A stretch of DNA of 32,000 nt from Candidatus Saccharimonadota bacterium (GCA_000503915.1 CP006915.1:90001-122000); one strand, 5' to 3'. Shown: positions 3,297-23,776, counted from the stretch's first letter. The notes: generated by a model not told the origin, from the letters alone. Translations and numbers: made by a program.

Positions 3297-3397
3297 TTTG
3301 TTGCATCTTTAAAATATATTGGTTTGATGATCGCTAATGGATTACTTACATTGTACCACATTTGTCCGGACACCGGTGGATACTGTATGATAAGAGT

Positions 3398-3769
3398 ATG
3401 ACTAAGATTGCTATCATCGAAGACGACCAGACCATTAGCCAGATGTATCGAATGAAGTTTGAAGCGAACGGCTACGAGGTTGCGCTGGCCGATAATGGCG
3501 AACGTGCCGTCGCCCTGGTAGAGAGCTTCCAGCCCGATATTATGCTCCTCGACCTCCAGATGCCAGAGATGGATGGGACCGAAGCGCTGACGGAAATCCG
3601 CAAACATGATTGGGGTAAAGATATCCCGGTCATTATTCTGACGAATATGGGCGAAGAAGAATCACCAAAAGAGCTTAAGAAACTTGGAATCAAGAACTAT
3701 ATCGTCAAAGCTGACCTGACGCCCAGCCAAGTCGTCGAACGCGTGAAATCGACACTAGAGCATCAGTGA
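3398..3769 (+). CDS. single-domain response regulator (CheY-like receiver only)
   Basis: MTKIAIIEDD...DIMLLDLQMPEMDG...ILTNMG...VKADL are receiver-domain motifs, and there is no output domain. ATG 3398 is preferred over TTG 3362 because it restores a canonical N-terminus. Confidence 0.85.
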   Translation: MTKIAIIEDDQTISQMYRMKFEANGYEVALADNGERAVALVESFQPDIMLLDLQMPEMDGTEALTEIRKHDWGKDIPVIILTNMGEEESPKELKKLGIKNYIVKADLTPSQVVERVKSTLEHQ

Positions 3770-3881
3770 GGCAGCACTGAGAAATAGCTACGAGACAGAC
3801 TAAAGGCGAAACGCAAGATGTGGTACAATCTTTTGACCACATCGAAAGTGGTCTGTCGAATAGCTATTTTTCAGTGCTGCC
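3770..3881 (+). ncRNA. unassigned structured RNA-like element, copy 1 (21-bp outer helix around a conserved 69-nt core, 3792-3860)
   Basis: GGCAGCACTGAGAAATAGCTA pairs with TAGCTATTTTTCAGTGCTGCC. The core has GACAGAC/GTCTGTC and GATGTGGT/ACCACATC helices. It starts 1 nt after the regulator stop, and its 3' arm overlaps the last 6 codons of folD. A second copy is at 17995-18097. Confidence 0.55.
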
Positions 3882-4688
3882 GAATTTTACGCGCTGATAG
3901 GCGGCGCGAATCACATTTTCAAACAATGCCACGACCGTCAGCGGTCCGACGCCACCCTTTTCTGGCGTAATGGTCACATCGCTGCGCTCACGAACCTCAT
4001 CGGCTACATCACCGATAATCTTGCCGTGTTCGGCCGACGTCGCCGCGTCAATCACTACCGCGCCCGGCTGAACCGAAGCGGAGGTAATCAGTGCTGGTAC
4101 ACCGGCTGCCGAGACGATCACCGGATAGCGCCGGAGTTGCGCAGTCATATTTTTGCTATGTTCGTCGAAGACCGTCACATTGTAGCCGGCAGCTTGCCAT
4201 AGCTTAGCAAGTGGCGCACCAACCAGCCGGCCATTGCCGACAATCGCGATGTGTTTGCCCTGTAACGCTACATTATATCCGTTTACTAGCCAGTCGATCG
4301 CCATCGGCGTGGCCGGAGTAAAATCTGAACCCTTCGACAAACCATCAACGTCTTTACTGCCCGCTACCATATTGACCGCCTCTTCAGTCTGCGATTCGTC
4401 CGCCAGCGGCAACTGGATGATGATGCCATGTACCGACTCGTCGTCATCGAGTAAGTTAATCGTTTGAAAAAGCTGATCCGAACTCACGCGGTGCAAGTCG
4501 ACTTCGACTAAAAGATCGGCCCCATAGCGCTGCTTCATTCGAACATAGGTATCAATAACCGGATCGTCGACTGTCTGGATAATCGCTAAGCGAGGCACGA
4601 TATCGTGCGCCTGACGCAGGTTGCGCACCTGACGCGCTTGCCGCTCCTTAATATAGTCCGCTAGTTCGGTACCGCTCAGTAATTTCAT
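3864..4688 (-). CDS. folD: bifunctional methylenetetrahydrofolate dehydrogenase/cyclohydrolase
   Basis: 274 aa with FolD-typical length and motifs (RVSSDQL..., IIIQLPLA, VVGNGRLVGAPLA, TPEKGGVGPLTVVALFENV). Confidence 0.9.
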   Translation of the reverse strand: MKLLSGTELADYIKERQARQVRNLRQAHDIVPRLAIIQTVDDPVIDTYVRMKQRYGADLLVEVDLHRVSSDQLFQTINLLDDDESVHGIIIQLPLADESQTEEAVNMVAGSKDVDGLSKGSDFTPATPMAIDWLVNGYNVALQGKHIAIVGNGRLVGAPLAKLWQAAGYNVTVFDEHSKNMTAQLRRYPVIVSAAGVPALITSASVQPGAVVIDAATSAEHGKIIGDVADEVRERSDVTITPEKGGVGPLTVVALFENVIRAAYQRVKFGSTEK

Positions 4689-14914: not shown

Positions 14915-14935
14915 TTCACATATCTTAATACTAAT

Positions 14936-14968
14936 AAATCGAGCTCGGATGACGAGCTCGATTTATTT
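14936..14968. terminator. bidirectional rho-independent terminator between pilin 3 and glyA
   Basis: Perfect 12-bp stem AAATCGAGCTCG / CGAGCTCGATTT with loop GATGA and T-rich tail. Confidence 0.8.
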
Positions 14969-16259: not shown

Positions 16260-16438
16260 ACGTAACCCTCCTCCATTTGGTTCATAAAAGTAAGTAAAAA
16301 AGTCCTAAGAGTAATTACAACATGTCGTTATTATAGCATTGGCGAGCCGAATGTTGCGAAAGCTTGCTTTCATTACTGAGACGATCCAATGTTACAGCGG
16401 CAACACCGTTATAACACCCTTTACTCTTATATCGTATG

Positions 16439-16447
16439 TGATATAAT
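16439..16447 (+). promoter_or_regulatory. extended -10 box TGATATAAT, 7 nt upstream of ATG 16455
   Basis: Read directly from the sequence. No SD fits in the 7-nt gap. Confidence 0.55.
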
Positions 16448-16454
16448 CGTACGC

Positions 16455-17987
16455 ATGACAGCAGTAGACTACAAAAAGCAGCTCGGTAAGCTCATTCAGC
16501 AGAACAGGCGACTCCGTCACATGACTCAGGCCGAGCTCGCTCGTGAGCTGGAAACGTCACAAAGTGCGATCAACCGCATTGAAAAGGGTGGCCAAAATAT
16601 CAGTATCGAGATGTTGGCGCGTATCAGCGAGGTGCTTTCCTGCAACCTTGTCATGCTCAATAATACAGGGAAAACTAACTTTAAAATCCGCGGCGGCAAG
16701 CGACTGTCTGGAAGTATCGAAGTAAAGACCAGCAAGAATGCGGCCGTCGGCCTGCTTTGTGCCAGCCTGCTCAACAAAGGCAAGACAACCCTACACCGCG
16801 TGGCACGCATCGAAGAAGTTAATCGTATCATTGAAGTTCTCGAAAGTATCGGCGTTAAAGTTCGTTGGCCGGAGTCAGGCGACCTCGAGATTATACCACC
16901 AGCGAGATTACAGCTGGATCGTATGAATATCATTGCCGCCAAACGCACACGTACGGTCATCATGTTTCTTGGGCCACTACTTCATCAATATAGTGATTTT
17001 AAAATCCCGTTTGCAGGTGGCTGTAGCCTCGGTACGCGTACCGTCGAGCCACATCTGGTCGGTCTGAGCCAATTTGGCATGGATGCCGTCGCACATGCCG
17101 GAACCGACTACTACCAGGTAACGGTCGCCGAGAAAGCGCCGTCAAAAGCAATTGTCCTCACTGAGCGTGGTGACACCGTGACCGAAAATATCATTATGGC
17201 AGCAGCGCTGTACGACGGTGAGACGGTTATTCGTAATGCTAGTCCGAATTATATGGTGCAGGATGTGTGTTTCTTTTTGCAGAAACTTGGTGTTGAGATA
17301 GACGGCATCGGTACCACAACGCTCCGCATCAGAGGCAAACGACACATCAACCAAACGGTTGACTACTACCCAAGCGAAGACCCGATCGAAGCAATGAGCC
17401 TGATAGCCGCCGGTATTGTGACGAATTCAGAGATTACCGTAAAGCGTGTGCCGATCGAGTTTGTTGAGCTTGAGCTTGCCGTACTGGAAGGTATGGGTCT
17501 TCAGTATGAGTTATCTGACGAATACGTGGCACGTAATGGCCAGACCCGCCTGGTCGATATCAGCCTGAAACACTCGAAGTTGGTCGCTGCCAAAGATAAA
17601 CTTCACAGTATGCCCTTTCCTGGCGTCAATATGGACAACTTGCCCTTCCTTGGCTTGGTCGCGACTGTCGCAAAAGGCCGCACACTGCTGCACGACTGGA
17701 GCTATGAGAATCGCGCCATTTACTTTACCGAACTAGCGAAGCTCAACGCCAACGTTGAGTTGGTCGACCCGCACCGCGTCTACCTAACTGGTCCGACCAA
17801 ATGGAAGCCGGCTGATATCATCGCGCCGCCCGCCTTGCGCCCCTCGGTCGTCATTCTCATCGCCATGCTAGCCGCACCTGGCACCTCAGTCTTACGCGAC
17901 ATCTACTCGATTAACCGCGGCTATGAAGACCTCGCCAGCCGTCTCAACACCCTTGGCGCCGACATCGAAACTGTCCAAGATATCTAG
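16455..17987 (+). CDS. murA: XRE-type HTH domain fused to UDP-N-acetylglucosamine 1-carboxyvinyltransferase (MurA)
   Basis: N-terminal ~65 aa are LRHMTQAELARELETSQSAINRIEKGGQNISIEMLARISEVL (HTH_3 pattern). A full MurA/EPSP-synthase fold follows: KIRGGKRLSGSIEVKTSKNAA and the catalytic-Cys loop AGGCSLGTRTVEPH. Confidence 0.85.
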   Translation: MTAVDYKKQLGKLIQQNRRLRHMTQAELARELETSQSAINRIEKGGQNISIEMLARISEVLSCNLVMLNNTGKTNFKIRGGKRLSGSIEVKTSKNAAVGLLCASLLNKGKTTLHRVARIEEVNRIIEVLESIGVKVRWPESGDLEIIPPARLQLDRMNIIAAKRTRTVIMFLGPLLHQYSDFKIPFAGGCSLGTRTVEPHLVGLSQFGMDAVAHAGTDYYQVTVAEKAPSKAIVLTERGDTVTENIIMAAALYDGETVIRNASPNYMVQDVCFFLQKLGVEIDGIGTTTLRIRGKRHINQTVDYYPSEDPIEAMSLIAAGIVTNSEITVKRVPIEFVELELAVLEGMGLQYELSDEYVARNGQTRLVDISLKHSKLVAAKDKLHSMPFPGVNMDNLPFLGLVATVAKGRTLLHDWSYENRAIYFTELAKLNANVELVDPHRVYLTGPTKWKPADIIAPPALRPSVVILIAMLAAPGTSVLRDIYSINRGYEDLASRLNTLGADIETVQDI

Positions 17988-17994
17988 CCCGGCA

Positions 17995-18097
17995 ATCTCT
18001 CGGTATCCTTCTGAGACAGACTAAAGGCGAAACGTGAGGTGCGGTATAACTAATAACCACACCGAAAGTGGTCTGTCGAAGAAGTGGTCCGAGAGAT
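17995..18097 (+). ncRNA. unassigned structured RNA-like element, copy 2 (core 18013-18080)
   Basis: The core shares its first 22 and last 17 nt identically with copy 1. The outer helix has a different sequence (ATCTCTCGG/CCGAGAGAT plus CTTC/GAAG). It begins 8 nt after the murA stop. Confidence 0.55.
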
Positions 18098-18124
18098 GAA
18101 CCGCTAGCTCTTCCCTCTCTGTTA

Positions 18125-18133
18125 TGCTACAAT
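18125..18133 (+). promoter_or_regulatory. extended -10 (TGCTACAAT) for the tRNA-His/tRNA-Gly pair
   Basis: 12 nt upstream of tRNA-His G-1. Confidence 0.45.
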
Positions 18134-18145
18134 TATCAACTGTAC

Positions 18146-18221
18146 GGCGAGAGTAGTTCAATGGTTAGAACGTCGGGTTGTGGCTCCGAAGACGAGGGTT
18201 CAATTCCCTTCTCCCGCCCCA
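18146..18221 (+). tRNA. tRNA-His(GUG) with encoded G-1 and CCA
   Basis: G GCGAGAG TA GTTC AATGGTTA GAAC G TCGGG TTGTGGC TCCGA AGAC GAGGG TTCAATT CCCTT CTCCCGC C CCA. There is one A-C mismatch in the acceptor. Confidence 0.85.
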
Positions 18222-18224
18222 TAT

Positions 18225-18299
18225 GCGGGTGTCGTATAATGGCTAATATATCTGCCTTCCAAGCAAATGATGCGAGTTCGATTCTCGCCACCCGCACCA
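18225..18299 (+). tRNA. tRNA-Gly(UCC), CCA encoded
   Basis: GCGGGTG TC GTAT AATGGCTA ATAT A TCTGC CTTCCAA GCAAA TGAT GCGAG TTCGATT CTCGC CACCCGC A CCA. Confidence 0.85.
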
Positions 18300-18384
18300 A
18301 AATAATTACTCCAGCTTGTCTGGGGTTATTATTTTGGTATAGGTTGTGTGGATTGTACTTGCATCAGCGAGCGCCAGCGAGCCG

Positions 18385-18581: not shown

Positions 18582-20144
18582 ATGTTAAGCATTAGGCGAT
18601 ACATGTTGCCTGGATTATCATTAATCCTTGCATCACTCGTGTTTCCTATCATGTTTTCAACTGGTGCTTATGCCGTGTCTCAATACGACAACGCCTACAA
18701 CCATGTAGATCAGCTGAAAATCGTACAAAACAACTACAACGGTGTTACCTGCGACCCTCTCGACATCACCATGACGTACCAGTCGTATTTGAATAACTCT
18801 GCGAAATGGTACCCGACTACCAGTGCCTTTGCTACAACCATGCAAGCATACAAAAGCTCCTTTGCTCAGGCACGCCAAGCAGGGTCATGGACAGTCAGTG
18901 TCGTATTAGTAAACGACGGAAGTGGTGGCTATACGTCGATAGTGAGAATTAACTGGTTCGAAGATGACCCTGGCAAGCTTGTCTTCAAGGGCACATCACC
19001 TAATACGCAAGTTGAATACCAATCCACTACAGATACCCAGGGACACTATGCATTCATATCGACGATTGATTTTGCACGTCCCTATGGATCGACAGATGCT
19101 GGAAATTGCACTCCTCATGTTTACGCAGTCGGTGACTTCGTAGCTAACGCCAACGAGGAAACCTACGCAGTTGTTTCTACTGAAGGTGCATTTTCTTGGA
19201 CGCCAACCAGCTCATCAGAAATGGGACACTGGGCAAACCTATTTGCTACAAGCACAAATGTTCAGTATCCTACAGGGTATGAAGGAGCGGCTATTTCAGC
19301 CAACTCACCCACGGCCACGTATGTGGCTATGGGTGATTCATTCTCAAGCGGTGAAGGGAACCCTCCATTTGAGTATGGAACGGACTCAGCTTCAGACAAG
19401 TGCCACCGAAGTCCCAATGCATACCCACGTTTACTGCAGAGTGATTCCAGCCTCAGTCTTGGATCAACTGCCTTCGTGGCGTGTTCGGGAGCAACAACCG
19501 ATGATGTCTTAAATGGCGGAAGCGGTGCGGGCAACTGGGGTGAAGGTCCGCAGGTGGATGCATTGTTATCAGACACGGAGGTTGTCACGATTACGATAGG
19601 AGGAAACAATATCAAGTTCGCTGAGTTTGCACATGCTTGCCTGTTTGGGAGCTGCAACAGCTCATCCGATGAGTACCAGGAGTCCTGGGACGTCATGACG
19701 GATTTGACACGGAGCGACTACTTGCCAAGCCAGCTTGACTCTCTCTTTTCGGATATCGCTTTTCACCTCTGGCAAAATACAAGTGTCAAGGTCTATGTCG
19801 TCGGCTACCCCTATGTGATCACACAGGCGTCCTGGAACGACAGGGGAGTCGGAATTTGTTCCGATTTTGACGAGGATGAAGCAATAGCTGCCGAAACTAT
19901 TGTCTCGAAACTTGACACCGTCATCGAGACTGCTGTGACAGATTTTGACGACTCACGATTTGTTTACGTAGATCCGCTAGCGACAGGAAGCCCATTCCTA
20001 GGCCACGAACTCTGCAGAAACGGATCATATTTCAACGGGATTGAGACGTCAGGCGCACTCGGCGGTGACGACGCTTACGTCTTCCACCCGGATACTAATG
20101 GTCAGCAAGCATATGCCGACTTGATTAGGAGCTACATGAGCTAG
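18582..20144 (+). CDS. secreted protein: unknown N-terminal domain + C-terminal SGNH/GDSL hydrolase, paralog 1
   Basis: Signal peptide ...FSTGAYA|VS. SGNH blocks AMGDSFSSGEG, ACSGATT, TIGGNN and FHPD..G. SD TAGGAGAA upstream. Confidence 0.85.
   Translation: MLSIRRYMLPGLSLILASLVFPIMFSTGAYAVSQYDNAYNHVDQLKIVQNNYNGVTCDPLDITMTYQSYLNNSAKWYPTTSAFATTMQAYKSSFAQARQAGSWTVSVVLVNDGSGGYTSIVRINWFEDDPGKLVFKGTSPNTQVEYQSTTDTQGHYAFISTIDFARPYGSTDAGNCTPHVYAVGDFVANANEETYAVVSTEGAFSWTPTSSSEMGHWANLFATSTNVQYPTGYEGAAISANSPTATYVAMGDSFSSGEGNPPFEYGTDSASDKCHRSPNAYPRLLQSDSSLSLGSTAFVACSGATTDDVLNGGSGAGNWGEGPQVDALLSDTEVVTITIGGNNIKFAEFAHACLFGSCNSSSDEYQESWDVMTDLTRSDYLPSQLDSLFSDIAFHLWQNTSVKVYVVGYPYVITQASWNDRGVGICSDFDEDEAIAAETIVSKLDTVIETAVTDFDDSRFVYVDPLATGSPFLGHELCRNGSYFNGIETSGALGGDDAYVFHPDTNGQQAYADLIRSYMS
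18712..19345 (+). repeat. 634-bp block identical to 22404-23037
   Basis: The in-frame translation and the out-of-frame/antisense track ORFs are the same in both copies. Flanks on both sides are clearly diverged. Confidence 0.85.
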
Positions 20145-22273: not shown

Positions 22274-23776
22274 ATGCTAAATGTTAGGCGATATGTGGTA
22301 TTGGGACTATCGCTCATTCTCTCGCTACTCGTATTACCTGCCCTGTTTTCAACTGGTGCATATGCCGCATCTCCATACGACAACGCTTACAATCATGTTG
22401 GCGAGCTGAAAATCGTACAAAACAACTACAACGGTGTTACCTGCGACCCTCTCGACATCACCATGACGTACCAGTCGTATTTGAATAACTCTGCGAAATG
22501 GTACCCGACTACCAGTGCCTTTGCTACAACCATGCAAGCATACAAAAGCTCCTTTGCTCAGGCACGCCAAGCAGGGTCATGGACAGTCAGTGTCGTATTA
22601 GTAAACGACGGAAGTGGTGGCTATACGTCGATAGTGAGAATTAACTGGTTCGAAGATGACCCTGGCAAGCTTGTCTTCAAGGGCACATCACCTAATACGC
22701 AAGTTGAATACCAATCCACTACAGATACCCAGGGACACTATGCATTCATATCGACGATTGATTTTGCACGTCCCTATGGATCGACAGATGCTGGAAATTG
22801 CACTCCTCATGTTTACGCAGTCGGTGACTTCGTAGCTAACGCCAACGAGGAAACCTACGCAGTTGTTTCTACTGAAGGTGCATTTTCTTGGACGCCAACC
22901 AGCTCATCAGAAATGGGACACTGGGCAAACCTATTTGCTACAAGCACAAATGTTCAGTATCCTACAGGGTATGAAGGAGCGGCTATTTCAGCCAACTCAC
23001 CCACGGCCACGTATGTGGCTATGGGTGATTCATTCTCGAGCGGCGAAGGTAATCCAGCATTTGAAGCAGGAACCGACACCAACGACGCCAACGAGTGTCA
23101 TCGGAGTTCGCAGGCATATCCGCACCTCCTTCAGAACATATCGAGTTTGAATCTGGGAACGATGGCATTCGTAGCGTGTTCGGGAGCAACGACAGCAAAT
23201 GTCCTCTACGGAGGTACGTCTGATGGCAACTGGGGTGAAGGCCCCCAAGTGGACGCACTGTCTTCAGACACTGAAGTTGTCACGATCACGATTGGCGGTA
23301 ACGACGCGGGGTTCCAGGAATACCTTCAGGGGTGCGTTATAGCTCCCTGTGGCCCCTCTACGGTTACGTACAACGCGATGATTGATCTGATAGATTCCTC
23401 ATCATTCTTGAGTAATCTTGAAACGACGTATGAAGAGATCCTGGATGGTGCCACATCTACTAATGTGTACGTGATCGACTACCCCTACTTGACGGCAGAC
23501 GATGCCGGATACTGCGGGGTGATCGATTTCTCGGGCGCAAGGGACATTCAGGTAGCACTGAATTCAACAATTGCGCTAGCAGTAGCAAACGTGAGAGCTG
23601 GATCTACCGACTACAGTGACAGGCTGCACTACGTCTCCACCAATTACACGGGGAGTCCGTTCGAAGGACAGCACCTATGCAACGGTGGTACGTCCGACTT
23701 CGGCAGCACTACCTTCCACCCCAACGTTCTCGGACACACTCATTACGCGGAGGTGGTAGCTGCAGCCATCGAGTAA
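22274..23776 (+). CDS. secreted protein: unknown N-terminal domain + C-terminal SGNH/GDSL hydrolase, paralog 2
   Basis: Signal peptide ...FSTGAYA|AS. AMGDSFSSGEG, ACSGATT, TIGGND and FHPNVLGH. Confidence 0.85.
   Translation: MLNVRRYVVLGLSLILSLLVLPALFSTGAYAASPYDNAYNHVGELKIVQNNYNGVTCDPLDITMTYQSYLNNSAKWYPTTSAFATTMQAYKSSFAQARQAGSWTVSVVLVNDGSGGYTSIVRINWFEDDPGKLVFKGTSPNTQVEYQSTTDTQGHYAFISTIDFARPYGSTDAGNCTPHVYAVGDFVANANEETYAVVSTEGAFSWTPTSSSEMGHWANLFATSTNVQYPTGYEGAAISANSPTATYVAMGDSFSSGEGNPAFEAGTDTNDANECHRSSQAYPHLLQNISSLNLGTMAFVACSGATTANVLYGGTSDGNWGEGPQVDALSSDTEVVTITIGGNDAGFQEYLQGCVIAPCGPSTVTYNAMIDLIDSSSFLSNLETTYEEILDGATSTNVYVIDYPYLTADDAGYCGVIDFSGARDIQVALNSTIALAVANVRAGSTDYSDRLHYVSTNYTGSPFEGQHLCNGGTSDFGSTTFHPNVLGHTHYAEVVAAAIE
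22404..23037 (+). repeat. 634-bp block identical to 18712-19345
   Basis: See the partner feature. The offset is exactly 3692 nt. Confidence 0.85.

Follow-up and report, generated by a model that had tools for sequence, protein, structure and literature searches.

What are two hairpins that share a highly conserved tip and little else, and how did they come to stand at two unrelated gene junctions of one bacterial genome? The stretch in question, called the window throughout, is 32,000 nucleotides (nt) of a Candidatus Saccharimonadota bacterium (GCA_000503915.1, CP006915.1:90001-122000), where copy 1 lies between a response-regulator gene and folD (3770-3881) and copy 2 between murA and a tRNA-His gene (17989-18103). 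An earlier note on this DNA, made from the sequence alone, had placed two conserved cores at 3792-3860 and 18013-18080, and both were present at those positions, with a 22-nt block (GAGACAGACTAAAGGCGAAACG; 3792-3813 and 18013-18034) and a 17-nt block (GAAAGTGGTCTGTCGAA; 3844-3860 and 18064-18080) shared exactly. When a 20-nt part of the 5' block and the whole 3' block were searched for with up to three mismatches allowed, the same two sites alone were returned from the 32-kb window, where chance expectation was 0.00 and 0.06 respectively. The explanation that we favour, and to which we give about an even chance, is that these hairpins belong to a new low-copy family of hairpin insertion elements of Saccharibacteria, in which a structured, strand-specific three-way junction is conserved and the distal stem differs from copy to copy.

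The proteins encoded in the window are most similar to those of Saccharibacteria/Saccharimonadales. Further copies were found by scanning one genome per species (185,579 species) for the pattern CTAAAGGCGAAAC...GAAAGTGG, which recovered three true copies in two of the 185,579 genomes, both of them Saccharibacteria metagenome-assembled genomes (L002 and L007 in UBA1050, and L034). A metagenome scan matched five contigs, one of which carried a new copy (L038), the rest being duplicates of the UBA1050 copies, and a seventh copy (L050) was found at the folD locus of a relative. A further ~25 matches of the species scan (L001, L003, L008-L033) were rejected as chance, lying within conserved pyrB coding sequence of Bacteroidota with the form CTAAAGGCGAAAC...(33 nt)...GAAAGTGG. 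A covariance model built from six copies scored all true copies at 81-95 bits (92 for copy 1 and 87 for copy 2) and, run with its filters off, returned no further copy, whether from the window or from ~250 kb of related loci. The IMG/VR, GenBank phage and PLSDB plasmid collections held no copy of the element, the two pattern matches in IMG/VR scoring 10-18 bits and being due to chance and the 5' block alone being unmatched there, and a collection of 5.8 billion proteins, queried with six-frame peptides of the core as a pseudo-protein so as to catch spurious open reading frames, gave no match. In all, seven distinct copies are known from at least five genomes, all Saccharibacteria assemblies, with five copies beyond the window. 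As far as exact-match scans can see, the family appears to be rare, confined to Saccharibacteria and present in one or two copies per genome.

The earlier note had not recognised any RNA family here, and that judgement stood: Rfam 15 at its gathering thresholds yielded five tRNAs alone from the window, and even at E <= 10 copy 1 had no match and copy 2 had chance matches only, at 18 bits against a threshold of 82. The other five loci were likewise without a match in Rfam, and literature searches for an RNA motif or repeat of this kind in Saccharibacteria or in candidate phyla radiation (CPR) bacteria returned nothing relevant.

The seven copies were aligned easily, and RNAalifold, run unguided, returned the structure that had been drawn by hand. 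Elements are 105-125 nt long, with a tip of ~65 nt on a stem of ~17-26 base pairs (bp), and from the outside in they comprise the proximal stem P0, a small internal loop with RA in its 5' strand and GR in its 3' strand, P1, the strand AAG, P2, the strand RA, P3 and the strand GAAAG. P1 is a 9-bp helix (GACAGACUA/UGGUCUGUC) in which the inner 7 bp, including a U-G pair, are invariant and the outer 2 bp covary; P2 is a 3-bp mini-hairpin, GCG-AAA-CGY, whose sole variation is a G-C to G-U change at the closing pair in copy 2; and P3 has 8 bp, a bulged A, up to 3 further bp and a variable loop, with 6 of its 11 pairs changing on both sides. The GA/GA form of the internal loop was seen in five of the seven copies. 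About 40 positions are constant in all seven copies, among them uninterrupted runs of 18 nt (CAGACUAAAGGCGAAACG) and 13 nt (CGAAAGUGGUCUG). Copy 1 folds at -64.5 kcal/mol (z = -11.8 against shuffled sequence) and copy 2 at -50.0 kcal/mol (z = -6.0).

Several lines of comparison indicate that this fold is under selection, its helices being kept by compensatory changes beyond what controls produce. Within the core alone, 97% of cells were paired, a value that dropped to 20-39% when partners were slid by 1-3 columns; eight core pairs had changed on both sides, compared with 2.6 +/- 1.2 in shuffles, and the observed core covariation score was reached by none of 500 shuffles. With P0 included, RNAalifold gave the P0-P1-P2-P3 structure with 15 of 30 pairs kept through changes on both sides, in line with the selected RNA or DNA fold proposed in the earlier note and unlike a chance repeat, and the compensatory A-T to G-C change and the one uncompensated change that it had pointed out in the inner hairpin were both real. 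With seven sequences, we consider this covariation evidence for the fold good but not overwhelming. The inner part of P1 and P2 contribute no covariation signal because they never vary, and their constancy next to a freely changing P3 suggests sequence-specific recognition.

The two strands of the element are not equivalent. Six of the seven copies had a lower minimum free energy on the plus strand than on its complement, the margin being 2 to 16 kcal/mol, and the copy that has a perfect stem gave a tie. Isolated transition mismatches in the long stems, read on the plus strand, were G-U in 7-8 cases and A-C in one, and the plus strand also has the invariant U-G in P1 and three further G-U pairs in P1, P2 and P3, while two C-A mismatches in P3 point to the other strand; the overall tally for the plus strand is ~12-13 against 3. 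Taken together, tally and folding energies argue that the element has been selected as a folded plus single strand, which is probably RNA; single-stranded DNA would be the less simple reading. No sigma-70-like promoter and no canonical terminator were predicted at either window copy, and since the element has no predicted promoter of its own, sense copies would be carried as 3' untranslated regions (UTRs). By eye, runs of U follow L034 and L038 and a weak one (GAAUUUUA) follows copy 1, with none after copy 2, L002, L007 or L050.

The earlier note had taken the fold as an argument against a miniature inverted-repeat transposable element (MITE) with conserved terminal repeats, and as an argument against mobility this failed on comparison with close relatives. 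At the site of copy 1, an element-free response-regulator/folD junction was found in six lineages (L043, L047, L051, L061, L065 and L069), in all of which the 3' ends of the two convergent genes overlap by 4-23 nt and leave no spacer. FolD of L043 is 93% identical to that of the window (folD DNA 88%), and the alignment of the two loci leaves ~112 nt extra in the window, stem and tip together. The reported overlap of copy 1 with the end of folD was borne out, the last five codons and stop of the gene (GSTEK*, 3864-3881) being read from the 3' arm of the hairpin, where folD of L043 ends in sequence overlapping the response-regulator gene. The C-termini of FolD and of the response regulator differ among the six element-free relatives. 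The C-terminus of folD has been rewritten by the insertion of copy 1.

The site of copy 2 is likewise empty in relatives. In L068, L058 and L060 the hairpin is absent, and 13 to about 90 nt separate the murA stop codon from tRNA-His. L068 (MurA 91% identical) reads ATCTAGC-AGTCTCTCCTC-TGTTGTGCTACAAT at this junction, and the window reads ATCTAGC-(17989-18103)-CTAGC-TCTTCCCTCTC-TGTTATGCTACAAT, with an 11-nt spacer of the same length as in L068. L057, whose murA DNA is 95.4% identical, reads ATCTAGC-GGTCTCTCAT, without a hairpin and matching the first 10 nt of the L068 spacer; this comparison is limited to the 10 nt that follow CTAGC, after which a different gene replaces tRNA-His. L068 and L057 thus have a single CTAGC here, against a pair in the window that brackets 17989-18103. 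An imperfect repeat, CTAGG...CTAAG, surrounds the L050 copy and includes the stop codon of the upstream gene, and at the other five copies no flanking repeat is visible. The motif CTAG, although only half as frequent in the window as expected, is concentrated where three of the copies begin or end; that it might be a target or end motif is suggestive only, there being one clean case and CTAG being self-complementary.

Empty sites in close relatives mark the whole hairpin, stem included, as a recent insertion, and the alignments indicate that both window copies were inserted after the split from relatives of 88-95% DNA identity. The conserved terminal repeats of a classical MITE are indeed missing, but the hairpin, with its 5-bp repeat at copy 2, is still an insertion. 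The extended -10 of tRNA-His lies 11-13 nt past the murA stop in L068, L058 and L060, and the tRNA-His promoter was left undisturbed by the insertion of copy 2 and its 5-bp duplication.

Two observations concern the genes around copy 2. The gene that follows murA in the tRNA-His position of L057 (3690-4184 of that sequence) is a Cys-rich open reading frame of 164 amino acids with no Pfam match, and the presence of a different gene there marks the end of murA as a site of repeated rearrangement. The fusion of a Cro/C1-type helix-turn-helix (HTH) domain to MurA in the window (HTH_3 + EPSP_synthase) was present in all 120 best homologues and appears to be a trait of Saccharibacteria. Coordinates of both copies and of their neighbours are collected in the table.

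Table. Positions of the two hairpins, their structural parts and the adjoining genes, counted from the first letter of the window.
Feature	Position	Strand	Remarks
Response-regulator gene	3362-3769	+	Pfam Response_reg, 8e-26; stop codon adjoins copy 1
Copy 1, complete 112-nt hairpin (stem and three-way-junction tip)	3770-3881	+	Missing at the same site in six related lineages
Copy 1, copy-specific stem, 5' arm, GGCAGCACTGAGAAATAGCTA	3770-3790	+	Pairs with 3861-3881
Copy 1, internal loop CGA	3791-3793	+	Opposite GAA 3858-3860; tandem G-A/A-G beside P1
Copy 1, P1 5' strand, GACAGACUA	3794-3802	+	Partner 3849-3857, UGGUCUGUC
Copy 1, junction AAG, P2 mini-hairpin GCG-AAA-CGC (3806-3814), junction AA	3803-3816	+	
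Copy 1, P3 hairpin (8 bp, bulged A, 3 bp, loop)	3817-3843	+	
Copy 1, junction GAAAG (3844-3848) and P1 3' strand (3849-3857)	3844-3857	+	Includes invariant block CGAAAGUGGUCUG
Copy 1, stem, 3' arm	3861-3881	+	Minus strand encodes last five codons and stop of folD
folD	3864-4688	-	Pfam THF_DHG_CYH; convergent with response-regulator gene
murA with N-terminal HTH domain	16389-17987	+	Pfam EPSP_synthase and HTH_3; upstream of copy 2
CTAGC, left 5-bp direct repeat around copy 2	17984-17988	+	Includes murA stop TAG
Copy 2, inserted 115-nt block (complete hairpin)	17989-18103	+	
Copy 2, 5' arm: CGG, CA, ATCTCTCGG, TATC, CTTC, T	17990-18012	+	Pairs with 18081-18103
Copy 2, core: GA, P1 18015-18023/18069-18077, P2 18027-18035, P3 18038-18063, GAAAG 18064-18068, GAA	18013-18080	+	
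CTAGC, right 5-bp direct repeat around copy 2	18104-18108	+	
Extended -10-like promoter of tRNA-His, TGTTATGCTACAAT	18120-18133	+	
tRNA-His	18147-18221	+	tRNA-Gly also downstream of copy 2

The positions of the two window copies relative to stop codons were as first reported, the stem of copy 1 beginning on the nucleotide after the response-regulator stop (TGA, 3767-3769) and the main stem of copy 2 starting 8 nt past the murA stop (TAG, 17985-17987). As a rule for the family this broke down. Two copies lie between response-regulator genes and folD in non-sister lineages and one between murA and tRNA-His; L002 follows ftsK and is antisense to both of its neighbours; L007 is downstream of a VirD4-like gene; and the remaining two lie ~100 nt upstream of rpsT, between divergent genes, and between prmC and an htrA-like gene. 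Five of the seven copies are in sense orientation just past a gene. Gene-end spacers in the carrier genomes are a mere 0-15 nt, so that an insertion that leaves the genes working must land by a stop codon, which explains the stop-codon pattern without calling on function. The element is not tied to any gene, the genes that flank it being functionally unrelated. Beside the L007 copy, an AT-rich region of ~1.2 kb without a convincing gene (L036 5060-6320, equal to L007 5113-6366) separates the copy from the gene for a VirD4/TraG-like coupling protein, and this copy may sit in a conjugative or integrative region.

The outer helices had been described as 21 bp in copy 1 and 9 + 4 bp in copy 2, with completely different sequences. 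Both lengths were as given (3770-3790/3861-3881 in copy 1, one pair being G-U; 17995-18003/18089-18097 and 18008-18011/18081-18084 in copy 2, with three extra pairs, CGG/CCG, at the base, 17990-17992/18101-18103). The difference in sequence was complete between the two window copies, whose arms share nothing, P1 and a weak GGCWR...YWGCC end motif alone recurring, but it did not extend to all seven: the 6-7 bp nearest the core are partly conserved in four copies (CCTTCT, CCTTCTC, CCTTCCC and CCTTTCC; consensus CCUUCYC) and GGC starts six copies, leaving the distal 12-18 bp as truly copy-specific. These arms found no other match in the 551 kb of sequence examined, in IMG/VR or among phages and plasmids.

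Two sources of the stem sequences were considered and rejected. That they are spacer-like copies of phage or plasmid DNA found no support, the arms being unmatched in IMG/VR and six hairpins, from the window and from other genomes, being unmatched in phage and plasmid collections. Template switching or fold-back synthesis might instead have copied them from neighbouring sequence, but this was not supported by an all-against-all control in which arms matched their own flanks (mean 5.7) no better than those of other copies (mean 5.8, maximum 8), and by this control the likenesses seen by eye (TCTCTC and CTAGCGG for copy 2, a 9/11 tandem match for copy 1) are chance.

Other hairpins of these genomes give a measure of how fast such stems may change. 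A 15-bp perfect hairpin (14933-14967) stands in the window between a pilin-like gene and glyA, and the same junction in L057 (467-493), L058, L060, L061 and L065 has perfect hairpins of 10-18 bp with unrelated sequences, indicating that terminator hairpins turn over completely between lineages. Long, fast-changing stems are thus nothing special in themselves, seeing that ordinary junction hairpins vary by lineage as well. Too little time has nonetheless passed since copy 2 was inserted for its stem to diverge by drift from that of a sister copy, the relative without the insertion being only ~5% diverged in murA DNA, and the stem of copy 2 resembles that of no other copy. What remains as the simplest account is a movement of entire hairpins among sites or genomes, each keeping an old stem of its own, from donors that were not seen.

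How an insertion element of this form might work can be sketched from the pattern of conservation. Its invariant tip would probably be what a trans-acting protein or enzyme, encoded at another locus, recognises, and this would explain both the spread and the constancy of sequence; that the tip is itself a catalytic core is less likely. The stem would need only to be a long helix. In the five sense copies the element would be co-transcribed as a 3' UTR hairpin, and it may there cap or terminate the mRNA, as a by-product and not as the reason for its conservation.

A number of observations weigh against such an insertion element. Neither the window nor the surroundings of the other copies yielded a transposase, reverse transcriptase, integrase, HUH or other partner gene, and no donor copy with the same stem was present in the sequences examined. 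The low copy number, one or two per genome, means that the element can move only rarely, and stems differ even within one genome, unlike those of a cut-or-copy transposon with defined ends. The 5-bp repeat is clean at one copy only and CTAG is palindromic, so that microhomology in the illegitimate recombination of foreign DNA, instead of a transposition footprint, could have produced it. Two mismatches in P3 and one in the stem of L050 are C-A and would read as G-U on the minus strand, and L002 runs antisense to the genes on either side. The collection scans, finally, needed exact matches to two conserved blocks, which puts diverged relatives outside their reach.

Among the rivals, the one that survives best is a non-coding RNA serving the host that is moved by recombination and is not itself mobile, an explanation we think unlikely; it could be a protein-binding small RNA or a 3' UTR module, bound at the three-way junction and protected or terminated by the long helix. 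Strong purifying selection at the ~40 constant positions, while P3 and the stems change freely, would suit such an RNA, as would the preference for the plus strand and the location of the five sense copies, three copies being followed by a U-run. It is, however, missing from the nearest relatives and from nearly all of the Saccharibacteria genomes scanned, and where it is absent the genes simply overlap, which argues that it is not needed there. Its flanking genes have unrelated functions, one copy being antisense and one upstream of a gene, and it has neither a promoter of its own nor a consistent terminator tail.

We consider two further accounts, each of them distinctly improbable. The first is a new kind of mobile structured RNA of ultra-small symbiotic bacteria, in which the invariant tip would be a catalytic or ribonucleoprotein-forming core that causes the hairpin to be copied to new sites whatever its stem, the stem being made or replaced in the process or acting as a guide-like duplex. 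The second operates on DNA, a folded single strand (for example on the lagging-strand template or during transformation) being recognised by a structure-specific recombinase or an HUH-type enzyme, in the manner of integron attC sites and IS200/IS605 ends. Tolerance of G-T and avoidance of A-C fit folded single-stranded DNA as well as they fit RNA, Saccharibacteria take up DNA, and insertion as a block with a short repeat, together with the orientation of L002 independently of neighbouring transcription, would also agree with this second account. Set against these points, a three-way junction with a 3-bp arm would be unusual for a DNA recombination site, judging from those known, no gene for an integrase or HUH enzyme was seen close by, and in known single-stranded DNA elements it is the ends, not the centre, that are conserved.

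A small ribozyme of a new kind that cleaves or ligates itself, its active site formed, much as in hammerhead-type three-way junctions, by the junction strands CUAAAGG, GCGAAACG and CGAAAGUGG and its activity possibly linked to mobility at the RNA level or to 3'-end processing, seems to us slightly more improbable again. At ~65 nt, with a three-way junction and invariant junction nucleotides beside covarying helices, the tip is typical of small ribozymes, and hammerhead and twister RNAs of bacteria are distributed in a similarly sporadic, mobile-like way. No Rfam ribozyme model matched even at E <= 10, however, the hammerhead core CUGANGA...GAAA was absent on inspection, and the inner part of P1 and P2 are also invariant, which is more like protein recognition.

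It might also be supposed that a ~69-nt core had been inserted into the loops of older long terminator hairpins, since perfect and unrelated 10-18-bp hairpins do exist at convergent junctions in these genomes. This we judge very improbable: both empty sites are without a hairpin, the genes overlapping at one and the murA/tRNA-His spacer being 11-13 nt at the other, and the stems of the element are longer, GC-rich at the base and for the most part free of A and T tracts on either side. The switch raised in the earlier note on the ground that ACCAC can pair with GUGGU on either side, here taken as one that senses a metabolite or signal by exchanging P3 for an ACCAC/GUGGU helix, is rejected as scarcely credible, since that pairing exists in the two window copies alone and is broken in the other five of seven (the 3' strand of P3 being AGCAC in four and AACAU in one, with GUGGU constant in all), so that the alternative helix is not maintained, and since the contexts are mostly downstream of genes with no consistent site upstream of a regulated gene.

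Three other features of the window may be recorded. Downstream of copy 2, at 18268-18366, a 47-nt imperfect inverted repeat comprises the 3' half of tRNA-Gly, a terminator hairpin and then that tRNA half again, inverted and degenerate; it is shared with L068 and may be a pseudo-tRNA or the scar of an old integration. The genes at 18582-20144 and 22274-23776, each of ~500 amino acids, are GDSL-lipase-like paralogues and lie at most 4 kb apart. Between 10143 and 14914 are five small genes with N-terminal methylation (type IV pilin-like) motifs and a CBM-containing protein of 622 amino acids, and this set differs between relatives.

Saccharibacteria and other CPR bacteria have tiny, tightly packed genomes from which very few non-coding RNAs or mobile elements have been described. 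The element combines clear covariation, an unusually invariant junction and documented recent insertions with no hallmark of known repeat families. Were its tip bound by an enzyme or catalytic, it would suggest that hairpins of RNA or DNA can be moved or used in a way not recognised so far; were it a mere passenger, it would provide a clean marker of recent gene flow between Saccharibacteria lineages. In either case its insertion can rewrite the ends of genes, the C-terminus of folD now being supplied by the element.

Comparison with known systems places the element between several of them. Like the orphan motifs among the structured RNAs in Rfam, for instance lysM-TM7 and others (Weinberg et al. 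2017, PMC5737381), and like the hammerhead, it is a compact three-way junction whose joining strands do not vary and whose helices covary, and it is known from comparison alone; unlike cis-regulatory motifs, it has no consistent gene association, and no Rfam model matches it. Template switching during replication creates or maintains hairpins (Monttinen and Loytynoja, PMC8794818) and could give and preserve perfect long stems of arbitrary sequence, but the test for copying from the flanks was negative here. With the attC sites of integrons the element would share a single folded strand recognised by its structure, with a sequence that is highly variable except in a few short conserved segments; in attC it is the hairpin base (the R and L boxes) that is conserved and the tip that varies, whereas here the tip is conserved and the base variable, and no integrase gene, attI or cassette array was found in the window or at the loci of the copies. 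REP and REPIN sequences are also intergenic hairpins at gene ends that are thought to act as folded single strands, but REPINs have conserved arms and a variable loop, the reverse of the element, and no RAYT-like gene was present in the sequence examined. Classical MITEs are similarly small, non-coding and bounded by inverted repeats, and the short direct repeats that flank them and the factor encoded elsewhere on which they depend may have counterparts here; unlike theirs, the arms of the seven copies are unrelated save for the 6-7 proximal bp in four, and conserved terminal inverted repeats are lacking. Where MITEs have many copies per genome and a related autonomous element, two copies were found in the 32-kb window, one or two per assembly elsewhere and none in the ~250 kb of related loci, and no transposase was seen in the window or near any copy.

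ERIC/IRU sequences of Enterobacteria and Correia/NEMIS sequences of Neisseria are small palindromic intergenic insertion elements. In common with these, the element is a non-coding hairpin of ~100-150 nt inserted at gene ends and polymorphic in presence and absence; it would also, like them, be co-transcribed as an mRNA hairpin, and the repeat around copy 2 may be a short target duplication such as theirs. ERIC and Correia sequences are conserved over their full length, especially in their terminal inverted repeats, are present in tens to hundreds of copies and duplicate TA, whereas here the centre is conserved and the stem copy-specific, there are one or two copies, the repeat is CTAGC and no sequence similarity exists. 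Although the features that define those families are missing from it, the behaviour of the element resembles that of ERIC/IRU, Correia and other MITE-like intergenic palindromes.

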